From the NCBI GenBank assembly GCA_963662665.2, contig CAXXJS010000032.1:1-64000 (forward strand): a stretch of 64,000 bases of DNA. The letters run 5' to 3'. A program made the position numbers and the translations under genes. The stretch is from Candidatus Latescibacterota bacterium (lineage in GTDB: Bacteria > Latescibacterota > UBA2968 > GCA-2709665). This document shows, piece by piece, positions 8,401 to 31,681 of the stretch (its first letter is position 1; the number at the start of each line of letters is the position of its first letter). The notes below the pieces were generated by a model. That model worked only from the letters and a program-made list of their open reading frames with translations. It made no database searches and was not told the origin of the DNA.

Positions 8401-9150
8401 GAGTTCAAGACCCTGATTGATGTAACGAATCGACCGTTCTCCATTGGCATTGACGTCGTGACGCTCGCCGAAAGCCAGACTGTATCAAACGACATCAGAA
8501 CCACGAAAGTCATATCGTTCAATGCTGCCCCGCCACCTGCTGCTTTTTCGATTTCCCTGGACGGCAATAGTGCCGCTGGCGATCAGGGCATCACAATGCT
8601 CGACGTGGCCACCGGATCGGTTGTCCCGATACAGCTTTTTGGTAATGATATCCGGGGTGTAAGCGGTGTTTCCGCCCGGTTTGAATATGACGCGGCTCAG
8701 GTCGGTTATGGCGGGTTCGATCCGGGAAGCCTGTTGCCGAATGCGCAGGTACTCGCGGTGCCTGCGACGAATCCAACCGCCATTGATATCAACGTCGTGT
8801 CATTTGGCGGACAGGTCGCGGTCGATAGTGGAATGGTTGGCAGCGTTCGTTTCCGCACGACGGACGGGTTTTCGGGTTCGACGATTCGGATGGTAAGCGC
8901 TGAGATCGGACGCGGAGACGAGCGCGAGAGCATAACGCCATCTGATATCGCCGTCACCCTGAGGCTGGCTGAACCGTCGCCGGACTTCAACGGAGACGGC
9001 AGGGTCGATTTTGGCGACTTTGTGGCGTTTGGCATGCACTTCGGCGCAAGCCAGGGCGATGCGAGATACGACGCGAAGTACGACCTGGATCAAGACGGCA
9101 TGATCGGATTTGGAGACTTCCTGATATTCGGGCAGGAATTCGGCACGTAA
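5489..9150 (+). pseudogene. 3' part of the IS-interrupted gene: two WD40 beta-propellers, an Ig-like (Big_1) domain, cohesin-like domains and a C-terminal dockerin/EF-hand pair; could be translated alone from the ATG at 5503
   Basis: Many GH...V.SVAFSPDG..LASGS.D..LWD repeats, TTDANGRA Ig-like segment, and the duplicated DFNGDGRVDFGDF...DLDQDGMIGFGDF motif. It is in frame with 2955-3786 once the IS is removed. Confidence 0.85.
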
Positions 9151-13979: not shown

Positions 13980-14006
13980 CAGATTAGCACGACCAAAGGA
14001 CCGGAA

Positions 14007-15017
14007 ATGAAAAATACTGATAACCTGCCCCCGTTCCCCGAGGGGTGGTATCTGGTAACAACCCGCAATGCCCTTGTGCGAGAGAAACTGGTCGAGAAGA
14101 CCTGGATGGGTGAAGAAATCGTCGCCTGGTGCGACGAAGAGGGCCGTGTTTGCGTGGCCGATTCCATATGTCCGCACCTGGGCTCGTCCCTGGGACCGGA
14201 CGTTGGCGGGAAGGTATGCGACGGCCGCCTGGTCTGCCCGTTTCACGGCTTTGAATTCGATACGACCGGTCAATGCGTCGCGACACCGAACGCCCCGGCG
14301 CCCAGAGCCGCGAAACTGAAGATATACGAGACCAGAGAGATCCTCGGCATGGTCTTCGCCTGGTTCGGGAACGGCGGCCGGCCGTCACACTGGGACCTTC
14401 CGGATGAGCCGCCCATCAGCGCCGAGTGGAGCAAACTGGGATTCCGGCGTCTCCGCTTCCGCAGCCATCCCCAGGAAACAGCGGAGAACTCCGTGGACCT
14501 GGGACACCTGCGCTACGTACACGGCTACGACGAGGTGACCCCGGTGGGTTCGGTTACCGTGGACGGCGCCTACCTGAAGAGTCGTTTCGACTTCAGACGC
14601 GTCCGCAGTATTCTGGGTATGAAAGACCTCGTGTACGAAATCTCCGCCGTCACCCATATTTATGGACTGGGCTACTCCTACGTTGAAATCCACGAAAAAA
14701 CCATCGATATGCACGCGAGACTCTGGGTACTCCCCATACCTGTTGACGGCGCCGTCATCGATCTCGTTCTTGCCGGCCAACTTCGGGAATTACGAAAACC
14801 CCGGCGGTTCATCACGGGCCTCGGTTTCGTCCCTTCGAAGCTGCGCCAGAGGCTGATGAATTATATTCTACTGTCACAGCAAAAACGGGATGTGCTGCAG
14901 GACGTGGTGATCTGGGAGAAGAAACGGCATCGGTCTCCCCCCAGGCTTTGTCGTTCCGACGGTCCCATCGGTACCTACCGACGCTATTGCCGGCAGTTCT
15001 ATCCGGAGAAGCCGTAA
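14007..15017 (+). CDS. Rieske non-heme iron oxygenase, KshA/Neverland(DAF-36)-like steroid-acting subfamily
   Basis: Rieske CPHLG...CPFHG, mononuclear iron site ENSVDLGHLRYVH, and C-terminal QDVVIWEKK...DGPIGTYRRYCRQFY. Confidence 0.8.
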   Translation: MKNTDNLPPFPEGWYLVTTRNALVREKLVEKTWMGEEIVAWCDEEGRVCVADSICPHLGSSLGPDVGGKVCDGRLVCPFHGFEFDTTGQCVATPNAPAPRAAKLKIYETREILGMVFAWFGNGGRPSHWDLPDEPPISAEWSKLGFRRLRFRSHPQETAENSVDLGHLRYVHGYDEVTPVGSVTVDGAYLKSRFDFRRVRSILGMKDLVYEISAVTHIYGLGYSYVEIHEKTIDMHARLWVLPIPVDGAVIDLVLAGQLRELRKPRRFITGLGFVPSKLRQRLMNYILLSQQKRDVLQDVVIWEKKRHRSPPRLCRSDGPIGTYRRYCRQFYPEKP

Positions 15018-15075
15018 GTCAGAGCGACGCCACTCGCGCCGGCGATCGCCCCTTCCTGCATATAGTCAATCCGCT

Positions 15076-16455
15076 TCAGGCCCTCGCCTTCCTGAACCAC
15101 CAACCATACAGCATGCTTCCATAGTAATTGAACGTCCGCCTTGCCTCGGGATCGTCGAAGGGATAGTCCGCGCCGATCTGCGTTGCGGCGGCAAGCCCGC
15201 TGACGAAGCACGTCTCCTGGCTGTTGATCAGCGTGTGCGCACCGCAGTGCCAGGTCCGCTTCCTGCCCTGAATGAAGCGGAACAAAGGAACGAGCAGGGC
15301 AACGTGGCGCACGTCGTGTACAATGTGCTGGAACCACCACCGTCCAATGATCTTCTGTTCATCGATCCGGCTGATCGGGTTGTAGGTCACCAAACAGGGC
15401 CTATCAGACCGTTTCGCCCACGGCTGCTGGTTATGCATGATGTACGTGATTTCATAATTGTCCGGTCTTACGCCGTATTGCTCGATGTGATTGCTGCGCG
15501 TCGTCAGGGGTTTCACTTCGTTGCCCGGAAGGACCGATGCGTCGGAGTGGACAATCGTATGGTTGTGAAGTTCGCTCTCGTAGCGTATGGACGAGAGAAT
15601 GTAGCGTTCCAGCATGGTGGGTTTGTCCAGGATCATCAGTGTCTGGTTCGCATTGCACGCGAAGATCACGTCGTCGAACGTCTCCTTAACACCTTCCTCG
15701 TCCTCTACCACAACGTGGGAGGACCGGCGGTAAACCCTTCGGACGGGACGGTTGAGGCATATCCTGTCCCGGAATCTCGAAGCCAGGTTCTCGTAGATGC
15801 GTCGTGTTCCCTGGTCCCATGTCTGCATGGGCGTGGCGGTTTCGATATCGAAAAATTCGAGATATCTCGTAAAGAGGGCCGCAGGCATATCGAACACGTT
15901 CGTCGCCATCAGGAAGTTGACAAACATGGGCTTCAGTACCTTGTACCGGAAGTCCCCGGAAAAACCTGCCAGATTCAGAACCGTCCCCATGCTGATGTAG
16001 TTGAACGGATTGAGGGCGTTCAGAAACTTCGATCGGGAGCGGGTCAGCCAACCGAACTTATGCAACCGCTTCAGGACCCGTTGAAACCTGGCAATCTCGA
16101 ACTGCAGCTGGTCCCGGATATCCGAGTCGAAATCGTGCGCATAGATGCCTCCGCGGTATTTCACGCTGTAGCTGAATTTGGTATCGATAAGTTCGATGCC
16201 GAACTGTTCCATCAATAACATGACATGCAGATATACCGACGGAATACAGGCAGTGACCGAAATGTCGAATGGAATGGAGCTTCCGTCATCCTGCGGCATA
16301 TCGGCTGTAACCGCATTTCCGCCAATCCGGTCCTGGGCTTCGAACAGCCGGAATTCAAACCGTTCCGGGTGATGGTGCAGTGCCCAGGCGGCTCCCAGAC
16401 CCGAAACGCCTCCGCCGATAATGGCGATCCGACGTCGCTGGTCACTCTTTCCCAC
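15076..16455 (-). CDS. FAD-dependent oxidoreductase (amine-oxidase-like, resembling lipid-modification-associated NAD/FAD-binding proteins)
   Basis: IAIIGGGVSGLGAA dinucleotide fold, LFEAQDRIGGNA, and C-terminal IQG...WHCGA...NSQETCFVSGL. Confidence 0.8.
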   Translation of the reverse strand: MGKSDQRRRIAIIGGGVSGLGAAWALHHHPERFEFRLFEAQDRIGGNAVTADMPQDDGSSIPFDISVTACIPSVYLHVMLLMEQFGIELIDTKFSYSVKYRGGIYAHDFDSDIRDQLQFEIARFQRVLKRLHKFGWLTRSRSKFLNALNPFNYISMGTVLNLAGFSGDFRYKVLKPMFVNFLMATNVFDMPAALFTRYLEFFDIETATPMQTWDQGTRRIYENLASRFRDRICLNRPVRRVYRRSSHVVVEDEEGVKETFDDVIFACNANQTLMILDKPTMLERYILSSIRYESELHNHTIVHSDASVLPGNEVKPLTTRSNHIEQYGVRPDNYEITYIMHNQQPWAKRSDRPCLVTYNPISRIDEQKIIGRWWFQHIVHDVRHVALLVPLFRFIQGRKRTWHCGAHTLINSQETCFVSGLAAATQIGADYPFDDPEARRTFNYYGSMLYGWWFRKARA

Positions 16456-16478
16456 AGATACCCCTTATCTTGTAGCAC

Positions 16479-16648
16479 TGTCAGCCAAAAGCCGACGGCT
16501 CAAAGCCGTTTTTCGACCAACTCCCCCTCTCCTCGCAGGAGAGGGTGGTCTGCCTTTCGTGGTCGTCCACATAATGGCGCTGACGTCACCCAATACTGTA
16601 TTCGCTTTTTGCTCTTGGCTGACAACTGAAGGCTGATAGCTGACAGCT
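16479..16648. repeat. Small inverted-repeat element with heptamer tandem repeats
   Basis: TGTCAGCCAAAAGC (16479-16492) and GCTCTTGGCTGACA (16611-16624) are 13/14 inverted repeats. Heptamers GCTGACA/ACTGAAG/GCTGATA/GCTGACA. Internal CCCTCTCCT-AGGAGAGGG hairpin. Confidence 0.45.
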
Positions 16649-16717
16649 CAGTCCGACGGATCGGGAGGAAAGTTCGCCCTCTTGTGATTTCCTGGACGGT
16701 AATACGTGCAATCTACT

Positions 16718-16751
16718 AAAAAGAGCCTGTCAGACGTATTACGACAGGCTC
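16718..16751 (-). terminator. Rho-independent terminator ending the OMF-MFP-RND-P450-SMT operon
   Basis: GAGCCTGTC...GACAGGCTC stem with a T-tract on the minus strand. Confidence 0.65.
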
Positions 16752-16843
16752 ACAGACACACATTCATTTCCCGGGCGGACCGATTGTTCGGAAGACTCTT
16801 TTTTCATCCCATCCAACGCCCCGGATCTTGAAGCAACGGTACG

Positions 16844-17083
16844 TCAGACGACAAGTTCGCGCCTTTGCTCGGCAATGTGAAACTTCAGCTTCTTGCTTGG
16901 TTTCATCGACGGTATCGGGCTGAATTGGAGCATATAGTTCGCCGGCGACACCTCGATCGTAAAGTAGTGCGCGACCATCAGCACGTTGACGGCCAGTTGC
17001 AATTCCAGCCACCTGGAGCCAAGACACGTGTGCGTGCCAAGCCCGAACGGCGCATACCCGGGACTGCGGTGCTCGTCTCGAGG
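16844..17083 (-). pseudogene. C-terminal remnant of a second cytochrome P450 paralog
   Basis: Manual translation gives PRDEHRSPGYAPFGLGTHTCLGSRWLELQLAVNVLMVAHYFTIEVSPANYMLQFSPIPSMKPSKKLKFHIAEQRRELVV*, collinear with the C-terminus of 18268-20295. There is an in-frame stop just upstream and no start codon. Confidence 0.85.
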
Positions 17084-17192
17084 CCTTCACAGTTCCATCC
17101 GGCGGCAGTGGGGGCCTCGGAAAGGCATCCACACGGGAGGTTCGCCCGTACTCTTATGCCCTCTTTTCAAGCATCCGCACCTTCAGGCGGGC

Positions 17193-18227
17193 CTATAGAG
17201 GCTTGCGAGCCAGGAAACAGTACAGCGGCGTAAAGATACCCGCCTTGCCGCCCGCGACATAAGCCTCCGCGGTCCGGCCCAGAAGTCGGACCACTTCAGT
17301 GGAGCCCTTCGGAAAGAGCCGCAGTACTTCAGCCAGCTTCGATCCTGCAATGACCGCCTTGCGGCCCCACGGAAGCCTGCGCAAAGCGTTTCCCAATGTC
17401 CCATGGCGCCTCTCCATGGGTTGATACCAGGGTGTGGAGGGTACTTCCGAGACGTCCATGTCCATCCCTTCCATGACGTGGAATCCCGCGGCTTCGAGCG
17501 CGTGATTCACTTCCCCGAAGGTCGCGATGTCCTTCAGCGCAACACCGCGCATGAGATCCTGCTCGATGGCCTGGTGCCGGTCGTCGTTCGGATCGAACTT
17601 GCCGGTCAGACACATTTCCTGACCCCAGAACAGGGCACCGGGCTTCAGCACGCGGAATACCTCCTCGAAGCAGCGTTGCTTGTCCGGCGCATGGCACGTT
17701 GATTCCATGGCATAACCCCGGTCGAAGGTGTCGTCCTCGATGGCGCTCATGTCCATAAAGCTGCACGTCTCGAAATCGACCATGTGATCGAGCCCCGCCT
17801 CGGCGTTCAACCTTTTCGCCTCTTCCACCTGGTTCTCGCAGATGTTGATTCCTACAACCCTGACACCGGCCTCAAGGACGACGCGGCGCATGGGGGCGCC
17901 GATTCCACAACCGACGTCGACCACCGACATACCCTGTTGCAGCTCCAACTTGGAGATCATCACCCTCTGATGCCGGACCTGAGACTCCTCCAGACTCTCA
18001 TGAGGCGTTAGGGGCGCGAAGTGCAGGGACTCGCCCCAGCCCCACACCATGAACCCGCTGCAAAGGTCGTAATAGTTTTTTACTGTTTCAGTGTGATCGT
18101 ACCCGCCCGCGCCACCGGACTCCGGCGCCGCCCGGTCAAGCCAGCCATCGAAGTGCTGCACTCGACGTGCGACGCCCAGCCCCCTGTACGCATCTTTCAG
18201 CATTCCCGACAGTTTTCCCAACCGCAT
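17193..18227 (-). CDS. Sterol C24-methyltransferase-like protein (ERG6/SMT family)
   Basis: YYDLCSGFMVWGWGESLHFAP (SMT region I), VDVGCGIGAP (SAM binding), YAMESTCHAP, and Sterol_MT_C-like GGKAGIFTPLYCFLARKP. Confidence 0.85.
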   Translation of the reverse strand: MRLGKLSGMLKDAYRGLGVARRVQHFDGWLDRAAPESGGAGGYDHTETVKNYYDLCSGFMVWGWGESLHFAPLTPHESLEESQVRHQRVMISKLELQQGMSVVDVGCGIGAPMRRVVLEAGVRVVGINICENQVEEAKRLNAEAGLDHMVDFETCSFMDMSAIEDDTFDRGYAMESTCHAPDKQRCFEEVFRVLKPGALFWGQEMCLTGKFDPNDDRHQAIEQDLMRGVALKDIATFGEVNHALEAAGFHVMEGMDMDVSEVPSTPWYQPMERRHGTLGNALRRLPWGRKAVIAGSKLAEVLRLFPKGSTEVVRLLGRTAEAYVAGGKAGIFTPLYCFLARKPL

Positions 18228-18267
18228 TTCGTGGTGTTTCCTCCCGGCTCCCCAAGAAGCCGTGTCG

Positions 18268-20295
18268 TCAGGCCGACAGCTCCCGTCTCTGCTCCGAGAT
18301 GCGGAACTTCAGCTTCTTGCTCGGCTTCAGCGACGGAATCGGACTGAAACGGAGCTTGTAATTCGCGGGCGACACCTCAATCTTGAAGTAGTGCGCCAGC
18401 ATCAGCAAGTTGGCCGCCAGGTGCAGCTCCATCCACCGGGTGCCGAGGCACTTGTGCGTGCCCAGCCCGTACGGGGCGTAACCGGGGCTGCGATGCTCAT
18501 GGCGGGGCGGCAGGTAGCGGTCGATGTCGAACTTCCAGGGGTCGGGAAAGACCTCGCTCATGTAATGCGTGGCGGTCATGGCGATGTGGATCCGTTCCCC
18601 CATAGGCAGCTCGTAGTTCTCGACCACGCACGTATTCATCACGTTCCGAATGGACATGGAGACGATCGGGTACATGCGCAGGCACTCCATGAGGAAGCGG
18701 TGCGTCACGTCGATGTTGGCTGGGGTGAAGTCTTCTCTCCCGGGATCGCCCTTGGCGAACAGGGCATCTGCTTCGTCCTGGATTCTGGCGTAGAGATCTG
18801 GCTGCGACGCCATGGCGTAGACGACGAGGCTGAACGTATCGCCGAGGTACACGCTGGCAATCAAGGCCGCGGAAAAGGCGAAGAGCAGGTTGGATTCCGG
18901 GAGGAATTGCGGGTCGCTCGCATGCAGGCTGAGATAATCGTCCACCAGGTCCCGGGGGCTGTCCGCCCGTTGGGCGGGGGTATGGATGCCCTCGACTCGC
19001 TGCATCAGTGTGTCCAGGACTTTCGCCCGGCGTCTCATGCCCGGGGTGTTCAGCGTGAATTTGGGCAGGAGCCTGGCGATGTGCACGCTGAGGGCCCGTT
19101 CCTTGTAGATCATCAGGTCGTCCATGAGGTCCTGGGTATCGATGCTGAGGAACAGTGGCGAGAGTTGGGCGTTCACCATCGCCCGGCACATGGACGTGGC
19201 GCGGTAGGAGTCCCCAACCTTCAAGCTCGCCATGTACTTGCGCCCCTGACCGTAGAGCTTGTCCAGCTGCCCTCCCAGCCTCCCTACAGAATAGGCCGGG
19301 GACAAGGACCTGCGAAGCCGGAAGTGATCGGCGCCGTCCAGGGCAGGCAGGACGCCGGACGCGCCGTAGACCTTCTCGAAGTCGCTGAAGTAGTCCCTGG
19401 CTCTCAGGTACATGCGCCCGCGCTTGTGCACCCAGCGGTTCGTGTCGAGTCCGGCCAGGAAGATCATGGGCTTCGAGAAGGGTGGGCGGACCTGGAACAC
19501 CGGACCGTACTCCTCCGCGAGGTTCCCGAAAAGCGCGTTGAGGTTGCCGTCCCGAATATGCGGGTTCAGCAGCAGCTTGGACAGGGAAACCGTCGGAATC
19601 TTTCTGGTAAGCGGAGGACGTTGGAGGGCCGGGCCGGCGAGGTTTTGAGAGACCGCAGCGGCCAGGGAGCGGCCGATCAGGTCCATCTTGCAGATGAATT
19701 CGATGCGCTCCTCGGCCTCGTCGTCGAGATGGAATATGAAACGGAAGACGTCGCAGGTATTGACGAGGCAGATGATGATGACATCTCTCGGATCGGGGAT
19801 TTCGTCGGTGAAGATGACCCTGCTGATCCGCGTTCTTATGAACTGGCCCGCAGTGCCCTCCTCCGACTTGCCGCCCAGTTCCCCGCGCCAGACGGTAGGA
19901 GCCAGTGTCCAGAATTCGCCGTCGTGATATTCCAGGACCTTGAGGTCAACCAGGCGATCCAGAACCGTATCGATGATCGACTCCGCGTGGGGGGCGAGCC
20001 GCTCGATCCAGTATTGGGCCTTCCGTTGAACAGATTCGGCCGCAATTTCCTTGAGAATGGGGTCTAGGGCAGCGTTGCCCGTCTCCGTCGGGTTCACGAG
20101 GAAGAGCGACTCCATGTCCGTGTCAATCCGCGACAGGAGGGAGAGTTCGGCAAGCACTGCCCCGACCACCGCGCAGTTCAAATGCCAGCCGGGCAACTGA
20201 TGAAAGTAGCCAGTCTCCTCGTTGAGGAGCATCAGGATGAGTTCCTCAGTCAGACTATGCGGATGGGTCGTCAAACCTTCGGTAGGATCAGCCAT
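18268..20295 (-). CDS. GPP34 (GOLPH3/Vps74-like) domain fused to cytochrome P450
   Basis: N-terminal LTEELILMLLNEETG...GAVLAELSLLSRI is GPP34-like. The P450 part has ExxR (ECLRMYP), FDIDRY and heme ligand YGLGTHKCLG. GGAGG RBS before the ATG at 20295. Confidence 0.8.
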   Translation of the reverse strand: MADPTEGLTTHPHSLTEELILMLLNEETGYFHQLPGWHLNCAVVGAVLAELSLLSRIDTDMESLFLVNPTETGNAALDPILKEIAAESVQRKAQYWIERLAPHAESIIDTVLDRLVDLKVLEYHDGEFWTLAPTVWRGELGGKSEEGTAGQFIRTRISRVIFTDEIPDPRDVIIICLVNTCDVFRFIFHLDDEAEERIEFICKMDLIGRSLAAAVSQNLAGPALQRPPLTRKIPTVSLSKLLLNPHIRDGNLNALFGNLAEEYGPVFQVRPPFSKPMIFLAGLDTNRWVHKRGRMYLRARDYFSDFEKVYGASGVLPALDGADHFRLRRSLSPAYSVGRLGGQLDKLYGQGRKYMASLKVGDSYRATSMCRAMVNAQLSPLFLSIDTQDLMDDLMIYKERALSVHIARLLPKFTLNTPGMRRRAKVLDTLMQRVEGIHTPAQRADSPRDLVDDYLSLHASDPQFLPESNLLFAFSAALIASVYLGDTFSLVVYAMASQPDLYARIQDEADALFAKGDPGREDFTPANIDVTHRFLMECLRMYPIVSMSIRNVMNTCVVENYELPMGERIHIAMTATHYMSEVFPDPWKFDIDRYLPPRHEHRSPGYAPYGLGTHKCLGTRWMELHLAANLLMLAHYFKIEVSPANYKLRFSPIPSLKPSKKLKFRISEQRRELSA

Positions 20296-20330
20296 CGGTC
20301 TTCGCCTCCCTGCAACATGCATGAAGTGCA

Positions 20331-23300
20331 TTACGTGGCGCGGGCGCCAGAACGGTCCCGCGAAGCAGTCAGATGCCGATGTGTGGTGTAGAGTGCGGGA
20401 ACGACCATCATGAGTAAGGCAGTTGTAAAGAGTATGCCGCAACCGAGCGATGCGGCGAACGGGACGAGGAACTGGGCCTGGATGGCCCGTTCGAGGATGA
20501 GGGGCGTGAAGCCGAGGAACGTAGTCACGGAAGTGAGCATGATCGGACGAAAGCGCCCCTTGGCGCCCTCGGTGATCGCGGTTCGCACCGGAGCACCTTC
20601 CTCGAGTTTCTGATCGATGAAATCGATCATCACCAGGGAATCGTTCACCACCACGCCACTCAGGCCGAAGACGCCCATGAAGGATACCGCGCTCAGGGCT
20701 ACTCCCAGGACCCAGTGGCCCAGGATCACACCGACCAGACCGAACGGAATGACGGCCATAATAATGAACGGCTTTGTATAGGATCGGAGGGGGATGGCGA
20801 GAAGAGCAAAGATCATGATCAGGGCAACCGCGAACCCGCGGTACAGCGCATCCAGGGATTCGAGCTGCTGTTGTTGCTCCCCTCCGAAACTGTATGTCAG
20901 GTCAGGGTGCGCGGCGGTCAGGTTCGAGAGGATCGATTTTGCAAGGATGTCGTTGGCTTTGTCGCCGGAAATCACCGAAGCATCGACGTCCGCCGTGACC
21001 GCGACGACCCGCTGGCCGTCCTTCCGCCGGATGGCCGGCGGCGACAGGCCCGGGCTCAGGGAGGCCACACTCATGACCGGGACCTCGGCCCCGCCCGGGG
21101 TACGGATCAGGTACCCTTCGATATCGGTAATGGAATTCCGCTCTTTCTCGGGCAAGCGCACGTAGACCCGGACCTCCTCCCGGCCGCGCTGCACCCGAAC
21201 CGCCTCGGCGCCGAAGAACGCGGCGCGCGTCTGCCCGGCCAGTTCCTCGAGTGTGAGACCGAGGGTCCGCGCTTCCGGTCGCAGCTCCAGTTGCACTTCC
21301 GGGACGCCCGGAGCGTGATCCGTACGTATGTCGTAGACACCTCCGATGCCGCGGAGTCCATCGACCACGGAGTCCGCAATAAGGGCGAGGCGCTCCGGGT
21401 CCGGATGGGACAACACGGCCTCCACCGGGTTGCCCAGATCGAAGACCTCGCCGGTGTAGGTGACACCGCGCACATGGGGAAGCACACCCACCTCCTCCCG
21501 CCATGCCTGCACGACCTCTCCGGTGGAGATCTCTCTTTGTTGGGCGCCCAGGAGTTTGAACTCGATGGTGGCGATATTGGCTTCCGGATTGAGGGTTGGC
21601 TCCGGATTTAGCCCGCCCTCGAGTCTCGATCCCTGTCCGACGGTCACCGTTACGCCGGTCAGTAGCGGTGGCGCGTCCGCAGGCCGGCCGCGCGAGAGTC
21701 GTTCGATGACCCGGAGGCCTGCGGCCTCCAACTCCTGTGCCACTTCGTGCGTCCTCTGAGCGGTAGCCCCATCGGGCATCTCCAGGACGACCGTTGCGAA
21801 ATCCCCCTCCACGTCTGCGGCCAGCGTGGTGGGAACGATTCCGGCGGACAAGAGGGAGATGCTCAGCACGAGAATTCCCACGGCCCCTGCCATCGTCACC
21901 CCGGGCTGGTCCGTCGCGAACCGCAGGGCCCGGTCGAGAGGCCCTTGCACGAACCTGTTCAACAGCGCGTCGACACGACCCTGGACCCGCGCGAAGAATC
22001 GGTCGAAGGCATTTGCCGGCGCCCACTCCGGGCCGTGCAGGTGGGACAGGTGGTTGGGCAGCACCAGCAGCGATTCGACCAGCGAAACCAGCAGCATGGC
22101 GATCATGATGATCGGCAGGGCCCGCCACACGTCACCGATGCCCCCTGGGATGAAAAGTAACGGGACGAAGGCCACGACGGACGTCAGAACAGCAAACGTC
22201 AACGGCACCTTGATCCGCCGTACGCCGCGGATCGCGGCCGTGACCCCGGGTGTTCCCCGGTTCCGTTCAGATTGAATGTGCTCGGCCACGATGATGGCAT
22301 CGTCGACGACAATTCCTATGGCGAGGACGAAGGAAAACAGGCTGATGGTGTTGATGGCCACGTCGAATGCCATCATGACTGCCAGGGCGCCGATGCCCGA
22401 AACGACGAGACCGACGGCGACCCACATCGCCAGCCGGATCTGGAGAAACAGGCTGAGGGAGACCAGCACCAGCAGAAGGCCCAACACGCCGTTCTTGAGG
22501 AGAAGATAGGCGCGCTCCTCATATACTTGGGATTCGTCATTCCATATGGTGATGTCCACGCCGTCGGGCAAAGCCGGCATCACCTCGTTCGCCACGTGCT
22601 CCCGGACGGCCGTGGCAACGTCCATCACGTGTTCGCCGTCGGCCCGGAAAACCTCCACGAATACCGCGGGATGGTTCTGATGCCTGACAATCAGGTCGGC
22701 TTCCTGAAAATCGTCGCGGACTTCGGCAATATCGCCAACGCGCAATACCGTGCCATCACTGTTGCTGAGAAGGACGATCTCTTCGAAATCATGCTGATCA
22801 TAGTTCTGGCCGATGGTGCGGATCCTCACCTGGGATTCCCGCGTATCGATGCTGCCGGCGGACAGGTCCAGGGAACTCCGACGAATCGTGTTGGCGATGT
22901 CATTGAGGGTAAGTCTGAGCGCTCTGAGGCGATGAAGCGGCACCTCGATGGAGATCTCGTAGCTCCTGACGCCGCTGACCTCCACCTGGGAGACGGAGGG
23001 AAGTGTCTTGAGCTCGTCCTCGATCTGGAATGCCAGTTCCTTCAGCGAGCGCTCCGATACATCGCCGTAGACAATGAGCCGCATCATGCTCTGACGGTTC
23101 GTCATCTCCCAGAACAGGGGACGTTCGGCGCCGCCGGGGAACGTCTGAATACGATTGACAGCGGACTCGATATCGTCCAGGGCCCGAGCCATGTCCGTAT
23201 CGAAATCCATTTGAACCCGCACTGAGGCAATACCCGGGGCCGCAACGGACTTGACCGCCTTCACGTCGTCCAGCCCGCTGACCTGGTCCTCGATCCTAAC

Positions 23301-23525
23301 GACGATCGACTCCTCCACCTCCTCCGGCGTGGCCCCGGGATAGGCCATCGAGACTTCGATATGGTAGAATGGGGTGACGTGCCAGGCTTCCCGCTCGATA
23401 CCGGTCAGCGACACCAGGCCGGCGGCGATGATGGCCCACATCAACAGGTTGGCGGCCACGCCGTTGCCGGCCATATAGGCGATCGGACCGGGCCGTTCGC
23501 CGTGGTTGTGTCCGTTCGTACTCAT
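20331..23525 (-). CDS. RND efflux permease (AcrB/AcrD/AcrF family)
   Basis: 1064 aa with YPGATPEEVE, GIVVDDAIIVAE, GVVVNDSLVMID and RFRPIMLTSVTT. Confidence 0.95.
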   Translation of the reverse strand: MSTNGHNHGERPGPIAYMAGNGVAANLLMWAIIAAGLVSLTGIEREAWHVTPFYHIEVSMAYPGATPEEVEESIVVRIEDQVSGLDDVKAVKSVAAPGIASVRVQMDFDTDMARALDDIESAVNRIQTFPGGAERPLFWEMTNRQSMMRLIVYGDVSERSLKELAFQIEDELKTLPSVSQVEVSGVRSYEISIEVPLHRLRALRLTLNDIANTIRRSSLDLSAGSIDTRESQVRIRTIGQNYDQHDFEEIVLLSNSDGTVLRVGDIAEVRDDFQEADLIVRHQNHPAVFVEVFRADGEHVMDVATAVREHVANEVMPALPDGVDITIWNDESQVYEERAYLLLKNGVLGLLLVLVSLSLFLQIRLAMWVAVGLVVSGIGALAVMMAFDVAINTISLFSFVLAIGIVVDDAIIVAEHIQSERNRGTPGVTAAIRGVRRIKVPLTFAVLTSVVAFVPLLFIPGGIGDVWRALPIIMIAMLLVSLVESLLVLPNHLSHLHGPEWAPANAFDRFFARVQGRVDALLNRFVQGPLDRALRFATDQPGVTMAGAVGILVLSISLLSAGIVPTTLAADVEGDFATVVLEMPDGATAQRTHEVAQELEAAGLRVIERLSRGRPADAPPLLTGVTVTVGQGSRLEGGLNPEPTLNPEANIATIEFKLLGAQQREISTGEVVQAWREEVGVLPHVRGVTYTGEVFDLGNPVEAVLSHPDPERLALIADSVVDGLRGIGGVYDIRTDHAPGVPEVQLELRPEARTLGLTLEELAGQTRAAFFGAEAVRVQRGREEVRVYVRLPEKERNSITDIEGYLIRTPGGAEVPVMSVASLSPGLSPPAIRRKDGQRVVAVTADVDASVISGDKANDILAKSILSNLTAAHPDLTYSFGGEQQQQLESLDALYRGFAVALIMIFALLAIPLRSYTKPFIIMAVIPFGLVGVILGHWVLGVALSAVSFMGVFGLSGVVVNDSLVMIDFIDQKLEEGAPVRTAITEGAKGRFRPIMLTSVTTFLGFTPLILERAIQAQFLVPFAASLGCGILFTTALLMMVVPALYTTHRHLTASRDRSGARAT

Positions 23526-24733
23526 GGCGACTCGCCAGTCTCGGTCCGGACGGGCATTCCGTCCGTTGCGAATTGAATCCCGCCGGTGATCACCGCCAAA
23601 CCGTGTTCCAGCGAACCCGTCACGAAGGCTTCATCGTCGACACGCTGCAGAACCCGAACCGGTACGATAGTCACAACGCCGCTTTTCACCATCCAGACCT
23701 CGTCGCCGGGTTTCAACGATGCCCGCGGCACTTTGAAAAAGCCTTCCGGCGCCAGGCCCTCGATTTCCACCCGGACAAACTTGCCCACCAATAGCGGCGG
23801 ATGACCGCCGGGACTGACGACGCCGTTCGTCGCAACGCCCGCGGAAAACGGATTTGGCACGCGCACGATGACGTCGATGGTGCGCGATTGCTCGTCCAGG
23901 GTTGCCTCGGCTCGATCCACGTAACCTTCCCATTCGTATTTCGCATCGCCGTGCCGGGCGACCACCCTGGCCGGCACTTCACGTTTACCGTCTCCCGCCT
24001 TCAGGTTCCAGAGTCCCGGGATCATGGCGGCATCGGAATCGGACAAAGGCACGACCACTTCCACCGCATCGGCGGCGAACAGCCGGCCCACCGGCCGGCC
24101 TGGGTTGACGACCTGTCCCGGATCCACAGATTCCTCACGCACCAGACCGTTAAAAGGCCCGGTGATCCGGGTTCTGGACAGGGCGAGTCTGGCGTCGGCA
24201 AGCCTGGCCTCATCGCGACTCAACGCGGCCCTCGCCGCGTTCAATTGGGGCTTTCTCAGCGTGAGAGGATGCGTATCGGAAGACGAAGCCTCGTCCCCTC
24301 TTTGCTCCGCGTAGCGTTCATATTGCGAGCGGGCAATCGATGCCTGTTCCTGCTCCTTGAGCAAAGCCACCCGGCTGGCCGCGAGATTGGCCTCCGCTTC
24401 CTGAACTCTGAACTGATAATGGACCTCTTCGATTCGGAACAGGGGCTGTCCGGCCTTTACCCGACCCCCGCTCTTGAATCCCGGATCCACCCAGACGACC
24501 CTGCCGCCCACTTGAGGGACGATATCGATCTCCGCGCTTGGCCTCACCGTACCGGACCCGAAAACCGGTATAGGCCCGGACCCGGCTGTAACCGGGCCCG
24601 TCTGCACGAACGGTATCTGGGGAGGCTGTTCGATCCGCGTCGGTTCGGGCGCCAGTGATTGCAGCAGGGCAGCCAGACCCACCGAAAACACGATTATGGC
24701 GCAGGCAATCAGAATGCTGGATTTACGGGACAT
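23522..24733 (-). CDS. RND periplasmic adaptor (membrane fusion protein)
   Basis: N-terminal TM, lipoyl-like PQVGGRVVWV, coiled hairpin and LSRTRITGPFNG. ATGA overlap with the RND gene. Confidence 0.93.
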   Translation of the reverse strand: MSRKSSILIACAIIVFSVGLAALLQSLAPEPTRIEQPPQIPFVQTGPVTAGSGPIPVFGSGTVRPSAEIDIVPQVGGRVVWVDPGFKSGGRVKAGQPLFRIEEVHYQFRVQEAEANLAASRVALLKEQEQASIARSQYERYAEQRGDEASSSDTHPLTLRKPQLNAARAALSRDEARLADARLALSRTRITGPFNGLVREESVDPGQVVNPGRPVGRLFAADAVEVVVPLSDSDAAMIPGLWNLKAGDGKREVPARVVARHGDAKYEWEGYVDRAEATLDEQSRTIDVIVRVPNPFSAGVATNGVVSPGGHPPLLVGKFVRVEIEGLAPEGFFKVPRASLKPGDEVWMVKSGVVTIVPVRVLQRVDDEAFVTGSLEHGLAVITGGIQFATDGMPVRTETGESP

Positions 24734-24739
24734 GACGAT

Positions 24740-26269
24740 CTACTCCGTTGGTGGTCGGGAGATACGTTGGGTGGGCGGTTCCTGCCCGAGGGTCTGTCGG
24801 GCGTCCGGGGTCCACGCGCCGCCCAGCGCCCGGTGCAGGGCAAGACGGGCCAGACCCAGATCGCGTTCCGCGGCTGCAAGTACGGATTCCGCGGCCAACC
24901 GTGCCTGCACCGCCGTCAGGAATACCTCATATTCGCCCACACCCGAAACATAGCGTTGCTCCTGCAATTCTGCTTCCGCTTCGGCCTCCTCCGAAAGGGA
25001 AGCCAGCAGCGAATGACGGCGGCGGCTGGCCGCCAGTCCGGCAAGGGCGGACTCAACCTCACTGACGGCTGTGACCACGGATCTCCCGTAGGCCGCGACA
25101 GCCTCTTTCATTCTGGCCTCCGCGAGAGCAACATTGCCGCGAAGACGGGAACCCTGGAAAACGGGTCCGAGCAGGTTCATGCTCAGATTCCGGAACCATT
25201 GCTCCGGGTTGAACCACTCGCTCGATTCCGTACTCTGCAGCCCGATGGATCCGTGAAGGGACAATCGCGGCGCCAGGTCCGCGCGGCGCGCGCCAACCTG
25301 GTATCGGGCTGCTTCCATGCGCTGTTGCGCCGCGACGACGTCAGGCCGCTGCGTCAGCAGATGGGTCGGTATGCCTGGCGGAACAGGTTTCCGGACCTCT
25401 TTACGTGTCAGGGAATCCGGCAGTAATTGCGCCAGGTCCCTGCGGGGATCTCCCATGAGCACGCGGAGCCGCCCCTCTGAATTCGCCAGCAGCGCTTCGA
25501 TCTGCGGCAGTTCGGCTTGCGCGTTGCGTGCATCCCGTCGTGCCCTGTGTAGCCCGCTCACATCGGTAAGCCCGCGGTCGTAACGAGATTCGGCCAGGGC
25601 CTCCCGTTGACGATAGATCTCTGCGATTTCCCCGGCCAGCCTTTGTTGATGGCGCAGGTTCACAATTTCAAGGTAGGTTCGCACGGTTTCGGACAGCACC
25701 CCCATCCGGGCGGTCCGGTAGTCCGATTCGGAAGCAAGGTGCCCGGCTCTCGCGGCGAGACCGTCGTTCCGGTTGCGCCCCCAGAAATCCAGTTCGTAGG
25801 CGAATTCCGCACCAACAGTATACGTAGTAAGGCCAAGTCGATCGGGGAGGACGATTCCGATCGGGGTACCGGATCCCGAATCCAGTCCCAGTTCGTCCAG
25901 CTGCGCACCTATACCGGCATTGGTGGGTGTATCGAATTCGTTGACGCCGGCTGTCGGCTGAAGCGACGGAAACATTGGCCCCCATGCGATTCGCGCTCGC
26001 GCCCTGGCCTGTTCCACCCGGGCAACCGCGCCGGCCAGGTCGAGGTTCGATGCCAGTACGTCATAGATTACCCGGTCGAGTACCGGGTCGGCGAACGTCG
26101 TCCACCACTCGCGCCGCTCGATTGAACCGGCAACGTCAGCCCCGACAGACGCGTCGGTCAGTTCCGCAACCGATTCGGGAACCGGGGGAGTCGTGCGCGG
26201 CGCCAGGGTGCAGGCCGAGATAAGTAGACCGGCAATCGCCGGCGTCAGTCTTTTTCGCGAGATATGCAT
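24740..26269 (-). CDS. Outer-membrane efflux lipoprotein (OprM/NodT/TolC family)
   Basis: Lipobox LISAC, WWTTFADPVL, YELDFWG, LLTQRPDV and LHRALGGAW. Confidence 0.93.
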   Translation of the reverse strand: MHISRKRLTPAIAGLLISACTLAPRTTPPVPESVAELTDASVGADVAGSIERREWWTTFADPVLDRVIYDVLASNLDLAGAVARVEQARARARIAWGPMFPSLQPTAGVNEFDTPTNAGIGAQLDELGLDSGSGTPIGIVLPDRLGLTTYTVGAEFAYELDFWGRNRNDGLAARAGHLASESDYRTARMGVLSETVRTYLEIVNLRHQQRLAGEIAEIYRQREALAESRYDRGLTDVSGLHRARRDARNAQAELPQIEALLANSEGRLRVLMGDPRRDLAQLLPDSLTRKEVRKPVPPGIPTHLLTQRPDVVAAQQRMEAARYQVGARRADLAPRLSLHGSIGLQSTESSEWFNPEQWFRNLSMNLLGPVFQGSRLRGNVALAEARMKEAVAAYGRSVVTAVSEVESALAGLAASRRRHSLLASLSEEAEAEAELQEQRYVSGVGEYEVFLTAVQARLAAESVLAAAERDLGLARLALHRALGGAWTPDARQTLGQEPPTQRISRPPTE

Positions 26270-26790
26270 ATCGCTGGACCGATGACAATCGACCTGGCGC
26301 TTCGGGCAGCGCCAATCCGACGTTGAATTCTAACCTTGATACGTAATTCTTCGGGGAAGTAAAACCGAATATATGCAAGTAGATAAAGGCGATTTGACTT
26401 CGGATTACCAGGATACACCAGGTCACTGGACGTGAACTGAAAAAACGTCCTTTATTGACGACCGTTACGCCCCGTTTCAGGGGTTTTCGTCGCGTCGCCG
26501 AGTTGCAGTTTTTTTCTAATTGAGGCTAATACCAGGAAAGATGCGTATTTGAACGGTTTCAAAGCAGCTCTTATGTCCTCTCTCCGGTTGCGCAGCCGCA
26601 ACTTTCGATACAAAATTATACGCATTTTGTCAAATTAAAAATGGGATTCCGTCCCGCGGTGACCGCCTGCCGGAGTGCGTTACGGCGAATTGCCTTCAGT
26701 CAATTAATCGTTGCGTGTCAGTGCCTTTATTCATACCTTGCCGGGCCTGTTCTTCGCGATTTCTACATTTCCGCTGGAGGGACGGACGTT

Positions 26791-28904: not shown

Positions 28905-31232
28905 TCACCTGAGTAAAACCGGTCCCCGTCCATCATTCCAGTCCATGCGAACGCGATCCCGCCTGTCGTCGGTATGGTCGATGGCGACCGTCCAGACGTC
29001 CCCGCGCCGCGTAGTTTTCGTCGTGATTCCTGCAGTAACCCGGTCCCCGCCGAAGGGGTAAATCACGTACCCCGTCCTGAACGGCAGCCGCGTCCGTCTC
29101 CTGTAGACGGCCACGGGCGCGGGTACATCCTGCCCGCTGATGGCCAGCCAACCCTGCACCGGGTCGTTCCGGCCGCAGATCAACCGGGGCGTCATCCTGG
29201 TCAGGGGAAGGAGTTCCAGATTCGGCGCATTCATACGCCCGGTGCGGACGGCGCCGGTATCCGGATCAATGAGCAGACGGAACGGCATGAAGTGGAAGAA
29301 CGCCTCGTACGTATGGGTACCCTCGCCTGTCAGTTCATCGAAGACCATGAAATAATCGGGTTTGATAAAAACCACCGCACGGCGGTGCCGGACGGCCGCG
29401 TCCAGGTCAGCGTAGGGCGCGTCATAGCTCGCCACGGCGACGTCTGAATGGTCATCCGAATGCCATACCGTCGTCTTGCGGGCGGATTCGACCCATTGAT
29501 CGATCGTCTGGTTCCGGCCCCGCGCCTGCGGCCGACCGTCCACAAGGACCGTATTGTGCGCCTGCGTGGTCGTGTAGAACCGGGTCCAAGGGTTGGTGTA
29601 GTAAGACGTGATGCCGGGGTCCACAATGAAGGACGTGCCATGGGCGTAGACTTCGAAGTTGAGTTTGTCTTCGTGCTGGTGCCAGCGGCCGTAGGGCCCC
29701 CCCTCGAAGAACAGATACCTGGCGTCGCGATCCCAGCCGCTTCGCATAATGAAGCAGCCCGAGTCCCGCAGCGCAATCGAACGATAGTCCGGCGGGGCGC
29801 CTTCGCGGCCCCCGGTGCCAACCCAAACCGCGGCCGGATTGTCCAGGACGCGTCCCGGGTGGGCGAGGGTATCTTCGTATTTCGAGTCCATGCTGCCGGC
29901 GTCTGAAACGGAGGGATGGGTGAAGTCCGGGCGGGTGATGGCCACGCACCAGTCGAACATCGATCGAATGCCGGCCTCCAGTTCGGGGTCGAGCGGATGA
30001 TTGAACTTTCGCGCGACCTGGAATGACTCCAGGAACCACGTGGCAATGCTCATCTGGTAACCGGGAGTCAGCTCGTAAGAAGCCCCGTCGGGCATCACCT
30101 GTACGCGCATGTCCTCCAACAGCCGGCGATAGCCCTCTTCCCGCCAGTGCGCGGCGTTATTGAATTCGGGAAATGCGCAGCCCAGCGCGGCGATGGTCCG
30201 GGCCTCGGCGATGGTTTTGTTCGAGGGTGGGTAGGATTCGAAACTGTGCAGATACGCCTGGTGCTCGTAGATGGACTTGAGCATCTCAATGATCGTCACG
30301 TCATCGGTTTCCGGACAGGCGCACAGGACACGGAACACGTCCACGAGCGTACTGAAGGGACGGATGGCCACCACCAACGAATGGCCCCACGGGTACCCCC
30401 CGGCGCGAACGCCGTACGGCACCGGGCAGTGTCGCATCCAGTCCGCGATGTACCGCTCGATGCCTTTTGCGTATTTCGCCTGTCCGGTTACCCGGAATGC
30501 GTCGATCGCGGGCCTGAGGAACAGGAGATAGTGGATGGCCAGCGTCCATTCAATGTAGCCGGTTGGATTGGCTTCCCAGTCGATTTCCGCCGACCAGTCC
30601 TGCCCCAGGACCCGGCCTTCCAGGACCCGGTCGGCCTGATCGGGGTCGCCATTCGGCTCCCGTTCGCTCGGGACCAGTTCCCGGTCGAAGCCGCTGGACC
30701 GGAAATACCTCGCAACTTCAGTCAGAGTGGATCCGTTCGGCGCGCCCTTCAGGAATTCCAGGCCGGGGTGGTCCGGGTTCAGCGCCGCGATGAAGTCTTC
30801 ATCCGTCATCCGCGGACCGGGCGTTACCTCCCTTTCCACAAGGCGAACGTTGCGAAACCGGCTGCCCGCGGGCCCGTCCATCATTGCCGATCGCGTCTCC
30901 TTCCATCCCGAAGGAATCCCCTGCGTATAGAAACATTCGCCCGGAAACCGGAATTCCCGCCACCCTTCCCAGATGTTCCCTCCGCGGCGGGAGACGATGG
31001 CGTTGAACTGATAGCCGTCGTCCTCGCTCATGCCCTCCGTGCGATGGCCCGACGTCAACCGGCACCGGATCTGGCCGTCCGCGTCGGGCGGGAGATACAC
31101 GTCGGCGCGAATCTCGTTTGCCCGCCGCCAGTCCCCCGCATCCACCGGCAGGTCGACGTGCTCTCCGCGCTCGGAATCTACAAGATACTGTTCCGAAATT
31201 ACCACGTCGTCGTGAAATTCAGCGAGGTCCAT
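28905..31232 (-). CDS. Heparinase II/III-family polysaccharide lyase
   Basis: QVMPDGASYELTPGYQ, SGCFIMRSGW, HQHEDKLNFEVYAHG, IVDPG and TQAHNTVLVDG. Start at MDLAEF with a GGGAG RBS. Confidence 0.85.
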   Translation of the reverse strand: MDLAEFHDDVVISEQYLVDSERGEHVDLPVDAGDWRRANEIRADVYLPPDADGQIRCRLTSGHRTEGMSEDDGYQFNAIVSRRGGNIWEGWREFRFPGECFYTQGIPSGWKETRSAMMDGPAGSRFRNVRLVEREVTPGPRMTDEDFIAALNPDHPGLEFLKGAPNGSTLTEVARYFRSSGFDRELVPSEREPNGDPDQADRVLEGRVLGQDWSAEIDWEANPTGYIEWTLAIHYLLFLRPAIDAFRVTGQAKYAKGIERYIADWMRHCPVPYGVRAGGYPWGHSLVVAIRPFSTLVDVFRVLCACPETDDVTIIEMLKSIYEHQAYLHSFESYPPSNKTIAEARTIAALGCAFPEFNNAAHWREEGYRRLLEDMRVQVMPDGASYELTPGYQMSIATWFLESFQVARKFNHPLDPELEAGIRSMFDWCVAITRPDFTHPSVSDAGSMDSKYEDTLAHPGRVLDNPAAVWVGTGGREGAPPDYRSIALRDSGCFIMRSGWDRDARYLFFEGGPYGRWHQHEDKLNFEVYAHGTSFIVDPGITSYYTNPWTRFYTTTQAHNTVLVDGRPQARGRNQTIDQWVESARKTTVWHSDDHSDVAVASYDAPYADLDAAVRHRRAVVFIKPDYFMVFDELTGEGTHTYEAFFHFMPFRLLIDPDTGAVRTGRMNAPNLELLPLTRMTPRLICGRNDPVQGWLAISGQDVPAPVAVYRRRTRLPFRTGYVIYPFGGDRVTAGITTKTTRRGDVWTVAIDHTDDRRDRVRMDWNDGRGPVLLR

Positions 31233-31681
31233 GCATGGCTCCCTTTTCGTGTTCCAGATTGAATTCTCCGCGCCCGCACATTGGCCGGTCGAGCGGTTGA
31301 GAAAGCGAATGTGAAGGTGCGGCAGACATTCCTGTCTGCCGCCGTTCTCATTGTCGTTCTGCCCGAATGCGGACAGAAATAAGGTTCGGGTCGCCCTCCG
31401 TCGCCTGTTGTCCAATTTACCGCGGGTCTGAATCGGCGAAAAGGCCATTTTCGTCCGGGCGACAGCGCAAACGCGGTATCGCACACAGATCAACCCCGCA
31501 AAGGACCCCACAGCGGCGCCTGCCCGATACACAGGGGTTGACAACGTGTTTGTGAAGGGTACATTCTGATTGTGCGTGGATCGTCATCGAGCGAAACATT
31601 ATCCACAATGATCGACCCGGGATGTCGGCCAGGGAACCGGGCGACTCCCTCAGTCGCAGTTGCTAATTGAAGGGTGACACA

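Follow-up and report, generated by a model that had tools for sequence, protein, structure and literature searches.

The 64,000-nucleotide stretch analysed here (hereafter the window) comprises positions 1 to 64,000 of contig CAXXJS010000032.1 in assembly GCA_963662665.2 of a Candidatus Latescibacterota bacterium. It carries a 12.7-kb block of genes encoding a sterol C24-methyltransferase (SMT) homolog, a fusion of a GPP34 domain with a cytochrome P450, a Rieske oxygenase, a flavoenzyme, and a tripartite pump belonging to the RND superfamily (resistance-nodulation-division). The block is a real feature, its arrangement is far from chance, and it recurs in dozens of genomes. We think it probable that it is one version of a modular, horizontally exchanged cassette that modifies a sterol and moves it across the cell envelope. 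Of the readings weighed below, sterol tailoring is the best supported and, in our judgement, somewhat better than an even bet; its basis is gene neighbourhood and domain content, from which we infer the substrate, every reaction, the reaction order, and the direction of transport.

The block spans 13980..26640, between the gene for an Fe-alcohol dehydrogenase (end 13979) and that for a sodium:solute symporter (start 26641). The source genome comprises 4.86 Mb in 66 contigs, of which the window is contig C32, and is an estimated 92% complete. Pfam and NCBIfam profile searches of the window's open reading frames (ORFs) gave the following assignments:

14007..15017, plus strand: KshA/Neverland-type Rieske non-haem-iron oxygenase, 336 aa (Pfam Rieske 60.8 bits, KshA_C 81.9 bits)
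15076..16455, minus strand: FAD-dependent amine-oxidase-family oxidoreductase (the flavoenzyme), 459 aa (Pfam Amino_oxidase 53 bits, NAD_binding_8 42.4 bits)
16718..16751, minus strand: intrinsic-terminator-like hairpin and T5 run at the end of the minus-strand operon (direct reading and fold)
16853..17083, minus strand: 3' remnant of a GPP34-P450 gene, 77 aa (similarity to the intact fusion)
17193..18227, minus strand: SMT-like S-adenosylmethionine (SAM) methyltransferase, 344 aa (CMAS 70.1 bits, Methyltransf_11 64.2 bits, Sterol_MT_C 59.5 bits against a cut-off of 21.7)
18268..20295, minus strand: GPP34-P450 fusion, 675 aa from ATG 20295 (GPP34 103.5 bits, p450 116.1 bits)
20331..23525, minus strand: RND inner-membrane permease (HAE1-like), 1064 aa (ACR_tran 517.8 bits)
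23522..24733, minus strand: periplasmic adaptor (membrane fusion protein, MFP), 403 aa (RND_mfp TIGR01730 163.4 bits, cut-off 94.9)
24740..26269, minus strand: outer-membrane factor (OMF, NodT family), 509 aa (TIGR01845 253.3 bits, cut-off 210; Pfam OEP in two stretches)
26270..26640, no strand: AT-rich spacer between the pump operon and the divergent symporter gene, presumed promoter region (GC 0.456 against 0.60 for the block)

These positions and families agree with what a first-pass annotation had proposed for the gene content. It had described a tightly coupled minus-strand operon, and the coordinates return its gaps of 6, -4, 35, and 40 nt in the order OMF-MFP-RND-fusion-SMT, provided that ATG 20295 is the start of the fusion; its open frame extends to 20442, and tblastn matches in relatives start near the residue of that ATG. 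The MFP frame and the RND start overlap by 4 nt. The pump is complete as claimed, all three parts being recognised at the scores above; the GPP34 (~19648-20253) and P450 (~18277-19557) domains do lie in one stop-free frame; the SMT homolog exceeds the Sterol_MT_C cut-off; and the flavoenzyme is followed, as described, by a convergent Rieske gene, with 58 nt between them. The operon was also said to be closed by a terminator, which can be read directly and folded as a 10-bp hairpin at ~16722-16751 (minus strand) followed by T5 (-16.5 kcal/mol, z -3.17), a fold matched by 2 of 200 shuffles. A simple consensus scan for promoters and terminators listed neither this terminator nor an operon promoter, and it probably missed the hairpin because the loop is longer than 8 nt. 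The promoter in 26270..26640 is presumed only, because a sigma-70 consensus scan called no site there.

The argument for a functional unit begins with its recurrence. A scan of one genome per GTDB species yielded at least 458 stretches encoding a relative of the SMT. We analysed the best 80, which are 71-88% identical over full length (median 79%) and of which 58 have full 10-kb flanks. Neighbours were counted by tblastn of the window proteins against the 80 loci (E <= 1e-20, at least 30% of the query):

GPP34-P450 fusion near the SMT: 75/80 loci; 57/58 full-flank loci
Rieske near the SMT: 65/80 loci, 55-90% identity; 49/58 full-flank loci
Flavoenzyme near the SMT: 41/80 loci, 77-91% identity; 29/58 full-flank loci
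HAE1-type RND near the SMT: 38/80 loci, 68-90% identity, median 84%; 31/58 full-flank loci
MFP adaptor near the SMT: 19/80 loci; 18/58 full-flank loci
OMF channel near the SMT: 12/80 loci; 12/58 full-flank loci
Any RND-superfamily transporter near the SMT: 60/80 loci; 49/58 full-flank loci

Fusion, Rieske, flavoenzyme, and transporter thus form, with the SMT, one conserved unit. All-against-all clustering of the locus ORFs placed a transporter of the MMPL/sterol-sensing-domain (HAE3) type, 763-827 aa long, in 22 of the 80 loci, never together with the HAE1 pump. Two further families accompany the cassette in MMPL-type lineages and are possible envelope accessory parts: an outer-membrane beta-barrel of ~300 aa in 13 of the 80 loci (e.g. 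L018:3158-4057) and a TPR protein of ~255 aa in 15 (e.g. L033:2276-3043). Among proteins of 603-2000 aa no SMT fusion was found, and the 477-aa protein P0053 was not accepted as one, since it has just the C-terminal 100 aa of the Rieske protein, read through into the SMT.

By record title, the 80 loci span about 12 phylum-level labels: Latescibacterota; Gemmatimonadota/Longimicrobiales; Dehalococcoidia/Chloroflexi; Nitrospirales; Nitrospinota; Acidobacteria groups; Binatia; Thermodesulfobacteriota; Rhodothermales; Opitutales; Actinomycetes; and Gammaproteobacteria. Most carrier records are labelled as metagenome-assembled genomes (MAGs) from sponges or corals. The phylum labels in the titles are unreliable, since L006 and L007 (titled Gemmatimonadota) and L070 (titled Latescibacterota) all have flanking genes 92% identical to those of the window.

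This distribution is accompanied by signs of exchange. With the window's HemB as a conservative housekeeping yardstick, 42 genomes were searched and 38 matched: HemB is 92% identical in the nearest relative (G038), 71-73% in three genomes, and 50-59% in the remaining 34. In those 34, the SMT is nonetheless 72-88% identical, and those that also have the fusion or the RND pump show identities of up to 92% for the former and of 83-90% for the latter. The ranking of relatives is also incongruent, G038 having 92% identity in HemB and 86% in the SMT, whereas G001 has 57% in HemB, 88% in the SMT, and 90% in the fusion. Cassette proteins at 72-92% identity beside HemB at 50-59% indicate that the cassette has been exchanged horizontally.

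Within the genus, the insertion site is polymorphic. In three same-genus genomes (G097, G099, and G100) the flanking alcohol-dehydrogenase and symporter genes are adjacent, ~20-90 nt apart, which leaves an empty site and identifies the block as an insertion. At the same site, G094 carries OMF-MFP-RND-fusion-flavoenzyme-Rieske with no SMT, and G098 carries OMF-MFP-RND, a more divergent fusion in inverted orientation (53% identity), and the Rieske gene, and lacks both SMT and flavoenzyme. Direct and inverted repeats of at least 9 nt are absent from the two block junctions, and the block shows no GC anomaly (0.602 vs 0.588 for the genome); neither observation supports or excludes transfer. Across the 168 genomes of the window's phylum, the fusion occurs in 50 and a cassette-type SMT (at least 74% identity) in 25, while 5 further genomes have only SMT paralogues of 39-44% identity. 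Fusion and cassette-type SMT are each found in 7 of the phylum's 49 genera, in a patchy distribution.

A trace of this modular exchange may survive in the window itself. The first-pass annotation had noted a second P450 remnant, and one does exist: the 77-aa remnant at 16853-17083 (minus strand) shares 81% identity with residues 597-673 of the intact fusion and retains the Cys-ligand loop. It lies ~110 nt downstream of the SMT stop, with the terminator hairpin ~100 nt beyond it. It is in a different frame from the listed 122-aa ORF (16764-17132), which was rejected as the remnant because it has no Pfam match and no P450 similarity (E 0.97). The remnant is closer to the C-terminus of the fusion in the SMT-less congener G094 (93.5% identity) than to the window's own intact copy (81%), and DNA homology between the window and G094 runs on through the spacer downstream of the remnant (84.8% over 375 nt). 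The simplest history suggested by these similarities is that the remnant is the end of an older resident GPP34-P450 gene, most of whose P450 would have been replaced by recombination with an incoming P450-SMT module.

The link to sterols comes from the company that the cassette keeps in the Nitrospirales. Locus L027 has the order CYP51, ERG4/ERG24, SdmA-like Rieske, second SMT paralogue, flavoenzyme, outer-membrane beta-barrel, Rieske, SMT, and fusion, with CYP51 at 355 bits to a solved CYP51, ERG4/ERG24 at 245 bits, and the SdmA-like Rieske at 407.5 bits. The paralogue (L027:4941-5972, minus strand) is 43% identical to the cassette SMT and has a more canonical-looking N-terminal aromatic motif, so that some symbionts hold two SMT types side by side. 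A single protein of ~1150-1270 aa encoded at related loci, typified by L024:121-3579 (plus strand), fuses squalene epoxidase (SE; PF08491, 78.8 bits) to a complete oxidosqualene-cyclase (OSC)-like cyclase (osq_cycl 731.7 bits); this SE-OSC fusion also occurs at L022, L026, L029, and L032 and in genomes G015, G016, G017, and G041. Adjacency to CYP51, ERG24, an SdmA-like gene, and SE-OSC in these bacteria ties the cassette to sterols.

Most carriers are unable to make sterols themselves. We surveyed 42 carrier genomes, mostly single-chromosome assemblies, for triterpene cyclases: a full-length cyclase is present in 12 and absent from 30. Only 4 of the 42 have an OSC-like cyclase (720-740 bits to osq_cycl), in each case as the SE-OSC fusion, and these are the sole OSC-like genes in the set; 8 have only a squalene-hopene-cyclase (SHC)-like enzyme (224-291 bits). 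The window holds no OSC or squalene epoxidase, as the first-pass annotation had stated, and a search of the whole 92%-complete genome found no OSC, SHC, or squalene epoxidase either. The nearest complete relative, G038, likewise has no cyclase and no squalene epoxidase. A weak SQHop_cyclase match on contig C28 was considered as a hidden cyclase and rejected, the protein having 296 aa and one prenyltransferase-type repeat. The only ERG4/ERG24-family gene of the window's genome (C8:72126-73184, L086:9049-10188; 131.8 bits) sits among unrelated genes for an FAA hydrolase, a glyoxalase, an esterase, and a generic methyltransferase, and adds another enzyme of sterol type to a genome that lacks a sterol pathway. 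With OSC and SE missing from the window's genome and an OSC-like cyclase missing from 38 of 42 carriers, the simplest reading is that the cassette would act on exogenous sterols. The earlier proposal that the symbiont modifies host or dietary sterols is therefore strengthened in part, through the conserved unit, the adjacency to sterol genes, and the absence of OSC and SE.

The same genome offers another candidate substrate. An HpnC-HpnD-HpnE operon on contig C24 (1611-4719; L088), with all three proteins above their NCBIfam cut-offs, indicates that the bacterium makes squalene, and a non-cyclised isoprenoid such as squalene is thus a live rival: an endogenous compound would be methylated by the SMT-like enzyme, tailored by the oxidases, and pumped to the outer membrane. 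SMT-like triterpene methyltransferases of Botryococcus offer a precedent for such methylation, the Pfam Sterol_MT_C model cannot tell sterol from triterpene methyltransferases, and HpnC is above cut-off in 21 of the 42 carriers. The other 21 carriers have no HpnC above cut-off, though, and every one of the 5 congeners tested has HpnC and HpnD, also the 3 whose site is empty, so squalene synthesis does not co-vary with the cassette. Since the Nitrospirales cassette moreover lies with OSC, CYP51, ERG24, and an SdmA-like gene, we regard an isoprenoid of this kind as a decidedly unlikely substrate. Near the squalene operon on C24 lies a gene for the reverse transcriptase/maturase of a group II intron (L088:8718-10088; 354 bits, above cut-off).

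Several observations weigh against sterol tailoring. The sterol link is a matter of neighbourhood in one lineage, ERG24 being found at 8 of the 80 loci and SE-OSC at 5, and the loci were picked through SMT similarity, so that all the counts describe this SMT subfamily rather than all fusions. Squalene is produced in the window's genus by way of HpnC, HpnD, and HpnE, with no cyclase present, and an SMT-like enzyme is no proof of a sterol substrate. The SMT does not form the core of the system: without it, same-genus genomes have the pump, the P450, the Rieske protein, and in some cases the flavoenzyme at this insertion site. The SMT is dispensable to the cassette, and these variants, together with the wider distribution of the fusion, mean that methylation is not its core reaction. 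The ORFs of 13980-26640 all fall in other families than a KshB-like reductase or another redox partner (ferredoxin or reductase). Finally, RND pumps of the HAE1 type usually serve in multidrug export, and that of the window falls below the NCBIfam subfamily cut-offs.

The SMT, whose relatives are 71-90% identical over full length, is the sole Sterol_MT_C (PF08498) match in the window's genome, and the same model finds nothing in 14 control genomes. It has a class I SAM-dependent core with a glycine-rich SAM loop readable in the translation; the aromatic stretch that we take, from yeast and plant SMTs, to be the sterol-binding region I is a putative variant of that motif in which the WGWG..HF core is kept. 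Over its whole length, the fusion's P450 part can be aligned with CYP120, taxadiene hydroxylase, and CYP51, all at ~66 bits; sterol and terpenoid P450s are its closest counterparts, and its Cys-ligand loop is invariant in 35 sequences. An AlphaFold2 model of the fusion (pLDDT 80.5, pTM 0.67) has as its best fold match Methylococcus CYP51 (TM 0.81, target-normalised; 20% identity). The P450 is not a CYP51, scoring ~65 bits to CYP51 chains vs 355 for the CYP51 of L027, and the resemblance in the predicted model makes CYP51 its nearest relative by fold only. The flavoenzyme has LkcE as its nearest solved relative (99.8 bits, full length) and reaches just 23.9 bits with the HpnE model; its place in the CrtI/amine-oxidase superfamily suggests a desaturase. 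ESM Atlas searches with the Rieske protein and the flavoenzyme returned generic family names only.

The Rieske enzyme shows the motifs CxH...CxxH and DxxHxxxxH in its translation and is not an SdmA (NF052579 35.5 bits vs a cut-off of 600). Its nearest solved relative is KshA, and with a KshA_C domain present, steroid catabolism has to be considered, in which the enzyme would open ring B of steroids taken as a carbon source. The similarity to KshA is confined to residues 12-172 (75.2 bits), however, and the genome has a single KshA_C gene. The block contains no reductase or catabolic gene (no search for KstD, KshB, or Hsa was made beyond it), and the partners of the Rieske gene are an anabolic SMT and an exporter. 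Catabolism is in our view highly improbable.

The pump bears on a different alternative. The RND permease matches RND_permease_2 at 406.6 bits, below the cut-off of 1250, belongs to no named multidrug subfamily by NCBIfam cut-offs, and does not match the BstA model; its best solved relatives are multidrug pumps, at 233 bits or less. Together with the pairing of P450 and pump that is common in resistance loci, this HAE1-like character speaks for generic detoxification and efflux, in which P450, Rieske protein, and flavoenzyme would oxidise lipophilic metabolites (terpenoids, steroidal toxins, or xenobiotics) for the pump to expel, with the SMT as an occasional passenger; SMT-less variants at the same site, and the fusion in 50 genomes against the SMT in 25 of 168, point the same way. 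Very high conservation (medians of 84% for the RND permease and 79% for the SMT) and fixed partners across phyla argue instead for one specific substrate. Elsewhere the pump is replaced by transporters of the MMPL/HAE3 lipid-transporter types, and in Nitrospirales the cassette is embedded among sterol biosynthesis genes. Detoxification is accordingly an unlikely account of the block. The MMPL-type partners belong to the Pfam family of the hopanoid/sterol transporters HpnN and BstA, as described in PMC10942540; one of them (L076) scores 45.5 bits with the BstA model vs a cut-off of 1400.

The GPP34 domain brings in the one published functional model. Ferreira et al. 2025 (Microbiome 13:4; PMC11706023) report the GPP34-P450 architecture (GPP34_L) in 656 proteins from symbionts of many phyla and in none from free-living relatives, and GPP34 genes in 604 of 780 symbiont genomes vs 0 of 85 free-living ones, with expression in 45 of 107 MAGs. 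They propose GPP34 as a secreted effector that binds host phosphatidylinositol 4-phosphate (PI4P) and blocks phagosome maturation, in which case the neighbours of the fusion would be unrelated to it. The restriction to symbionts and the expression data favour this proposal, as does the fact that the domain is a true GOLPH3 homologue: beyond its Pfam match (PF05719, 103.5 bits), a 26-sequence bacterial GPP34 profile scores 44.8 bits against human GOLPH3 and 36.5 bits against Vps74 of yeast. The profile was needed for this, as phmmer of the GPP34 part alone found no match among solved structures.

The details of the domain and its setting fit the effector model poorly. In chain 9qpq (full-length GOLPH3), residues 81, 90, 171, and 174 are W, R, R, and R, and we take W81, R90, R171, and R174 of the human protein to form its PI4P pocket. 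The aligned positions in the bacterial consensus are P, V, E, and I, in a low-identity alignment that is not exact. Near the positions that align with R90, R171, and R174, basic residues are missing from all of 25 fusion-type sequences; the ten-residue hairpin before R171 is absent from them, and a conserved W lies two residues off. The bacterial domain thus does not seem to keep the presumed PI4P residues, which argues against PI4P binding; since the alignment is of low identity and the role of the residues is our assumption, this is suggestive and not proof. By eye, the N-terminus of the fusion has no hydrophobic signal-like stretch. The fusion is also embedded in an operon, separated by 35 and 40 nt from the adjoining genes, and has the same metabolic neighbours across phyla, and a P450 needs haem and cytosolic electron donors. 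Given the replaced residues, the operon setting, and the attached haem enzyme, we consider GPP34 more likely to be a lipid- or membrane-handling part of the P450 than a secreted effector, and a role as PI4P effector very unlikely. The GPP34-Rieske fusions in two genomes and the P450 gene near a short GPP34 form that PMC11706023 also describes link these domains independently. The window's genome has a short stand-alone GPP34 gene of its own (C28:215220-215819, L087:9176-9901; 166.5 bits), surrounded by genes for transporters; the stretch examined there contains no P450.

If the cassette tailors sterols, as we favour, its parts could work together as follows. A sterol would arrive at the inner membrane, and in the window's genome it would have to be exogenous because no cyclase is present. 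The SAM-dependent SMT would alkylate an olefinic side chain, the P450, with its CYP51-like fold, and the KshA/Neverland-type Rieske enzyme would hydroxylate or desaturate the nucleus or side chain, and a double bond might be formed or moved by the LkcE/CrtI-type flavoenzyme. GPP34 would be the part of the P450 protein that handles membranes or lipids and would not be an effector that binds PI4P. The product would then be carried to the outer membrane or outside the cell by the OMF-MFP-RND pump, or by the MMPL/HAE3 transporter in other lineages. Such a system might contribute to the sterols of sponges. A more far-reaching version is tentative, and we hold it to be possible but doubtful: sponge symbionts of a dozen phyla would, by means of a shared mobile cassette, take up host-made sterols, alkylate and oxidise them, and return or display them through a dedicated RND or MMPL transporter, so that the unusual side-chain-alkylated sterols of demosponges, with the precursors of the disputed Cryogenian 'sponge' steranes among them, would be joint products of host and symbiont and GPP34 a sterol/lipid module.

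Three known systems invite comparison. Brown et al. 2023 (Nat Commun 14:1859; PMC10070321) found that 8 of 10 symbiont SMTs assayed methylated desmosterol in vitro; those sponge-symbiont enzymes likewise have methyltransferase and C-terminal SMT domains and come from uncultured symbionts. That paper raises the methylation of host-acquired sterols for Chlamydiae and stresses de novo clusters (erg genes, sdmAB, and OSC), and its main text does not contain the words 'P450' and 'Rieske'; here, in contrast, most carriers have no OSC, and the SMT is accompanied by a pump and oxidases. Kelly et al. 2022 (Microbiome 10:164; PMC9531527) describe ERG24-CYP51-LSS clusters in Ircinia symbionts, spread horizontally over 10 phyla and under purifying selection, with SMT1/ERG6 enriched and sometimes flanking them. 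Such a cluster is a de novo core pathway, whereas the window's genome has no LSS or SE and a lone ERG4/ERG24 gene elsewhere; the cassette studied here consists of other genes and adjoins a cluster of that kind only at Nitrospirales loci. Zhai et al. 2024 (eLife 12:RP90696; PMC10942540) describe the sterol operon of Methylococcus capsulatus with the transporters BstA, BstB, and BstC, which likewise combines sterol-modifying enzymes with an RND-superfamily transporter thought to move sterols to the outer membrane. BstA is MMPL/HpnN-like and works with a periplasmic binder and an outer-membrane lipoprotein, while the window has an AcrB-like tripartite pump.

The fusion of the window is a member of GPP34_L, with the same two-domain architecture. 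In the main text of PMC11706023, the words 'sterol', 'methyltransferase', 'efflux', 'operon', and 'lipid' do not occur, and flanks were examined for the short form only; the protein read there as a secreted PI4P effector is here one gene of a cassette with an SMT, a Rieske enzyme, a flavoenzyme, and a transporter. The system had been put forward as undescribed, and this holds for the linkage and not for the parts: symbiont SMTs and their activity (PMC10070321), ERG24-CYP51-LSS clusters, the GPP34-P450 fusion (PMC11706023), and an RND-superfamily sterol transporter are already in print. A literature search, outside whose reach most subscription journals lay, turned up no article that connects GPP34 or the fusion with sterols, an SMT, or an RND pump. 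Within that search, what we did not find in print is the linkage of the fusion with an SMT, a KshA-type Rieske enzyme, an LkcE-type flavoenzyme, and an RND or MMPL transporter, together with the insertion polymorphism, the modular exchange, the predominance in OSC-less genomes, and the sterol reading of GPP34_L.

Were sterol tailoring the right reading, two separate published observations, the SMTs of sponge symbionts and the GPP34-P450 fusion, would be joined into one functional unit, and the phagosome-effector model of GPP34 would have a testable alternative. For the debate on sponge biomarkers, the question would become the re-tailoring of host sterols by symbionts, not the de novo synthesis of 24-alkyl sterols, and arguments based on SMT copy number or OSC would miss it. 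The gene set would be small and defined, and its natural variants (empty, SMT-less, and SMT-bearing) would provide built-in comparisons of genotype and sterol profile.

Elsewhere in the window, outside the block, we noted a DDE transposase (PF13701, 519 bits) at 4040-5404 on the minus strand, a 1215-aa WD40-repeat protein at 5503-9150 on the plus strand, a heparinase II/III-like protein at 28905-31544 on the minus strand, and a 3419-aa open frame at 39322-49581 on the plus strand.

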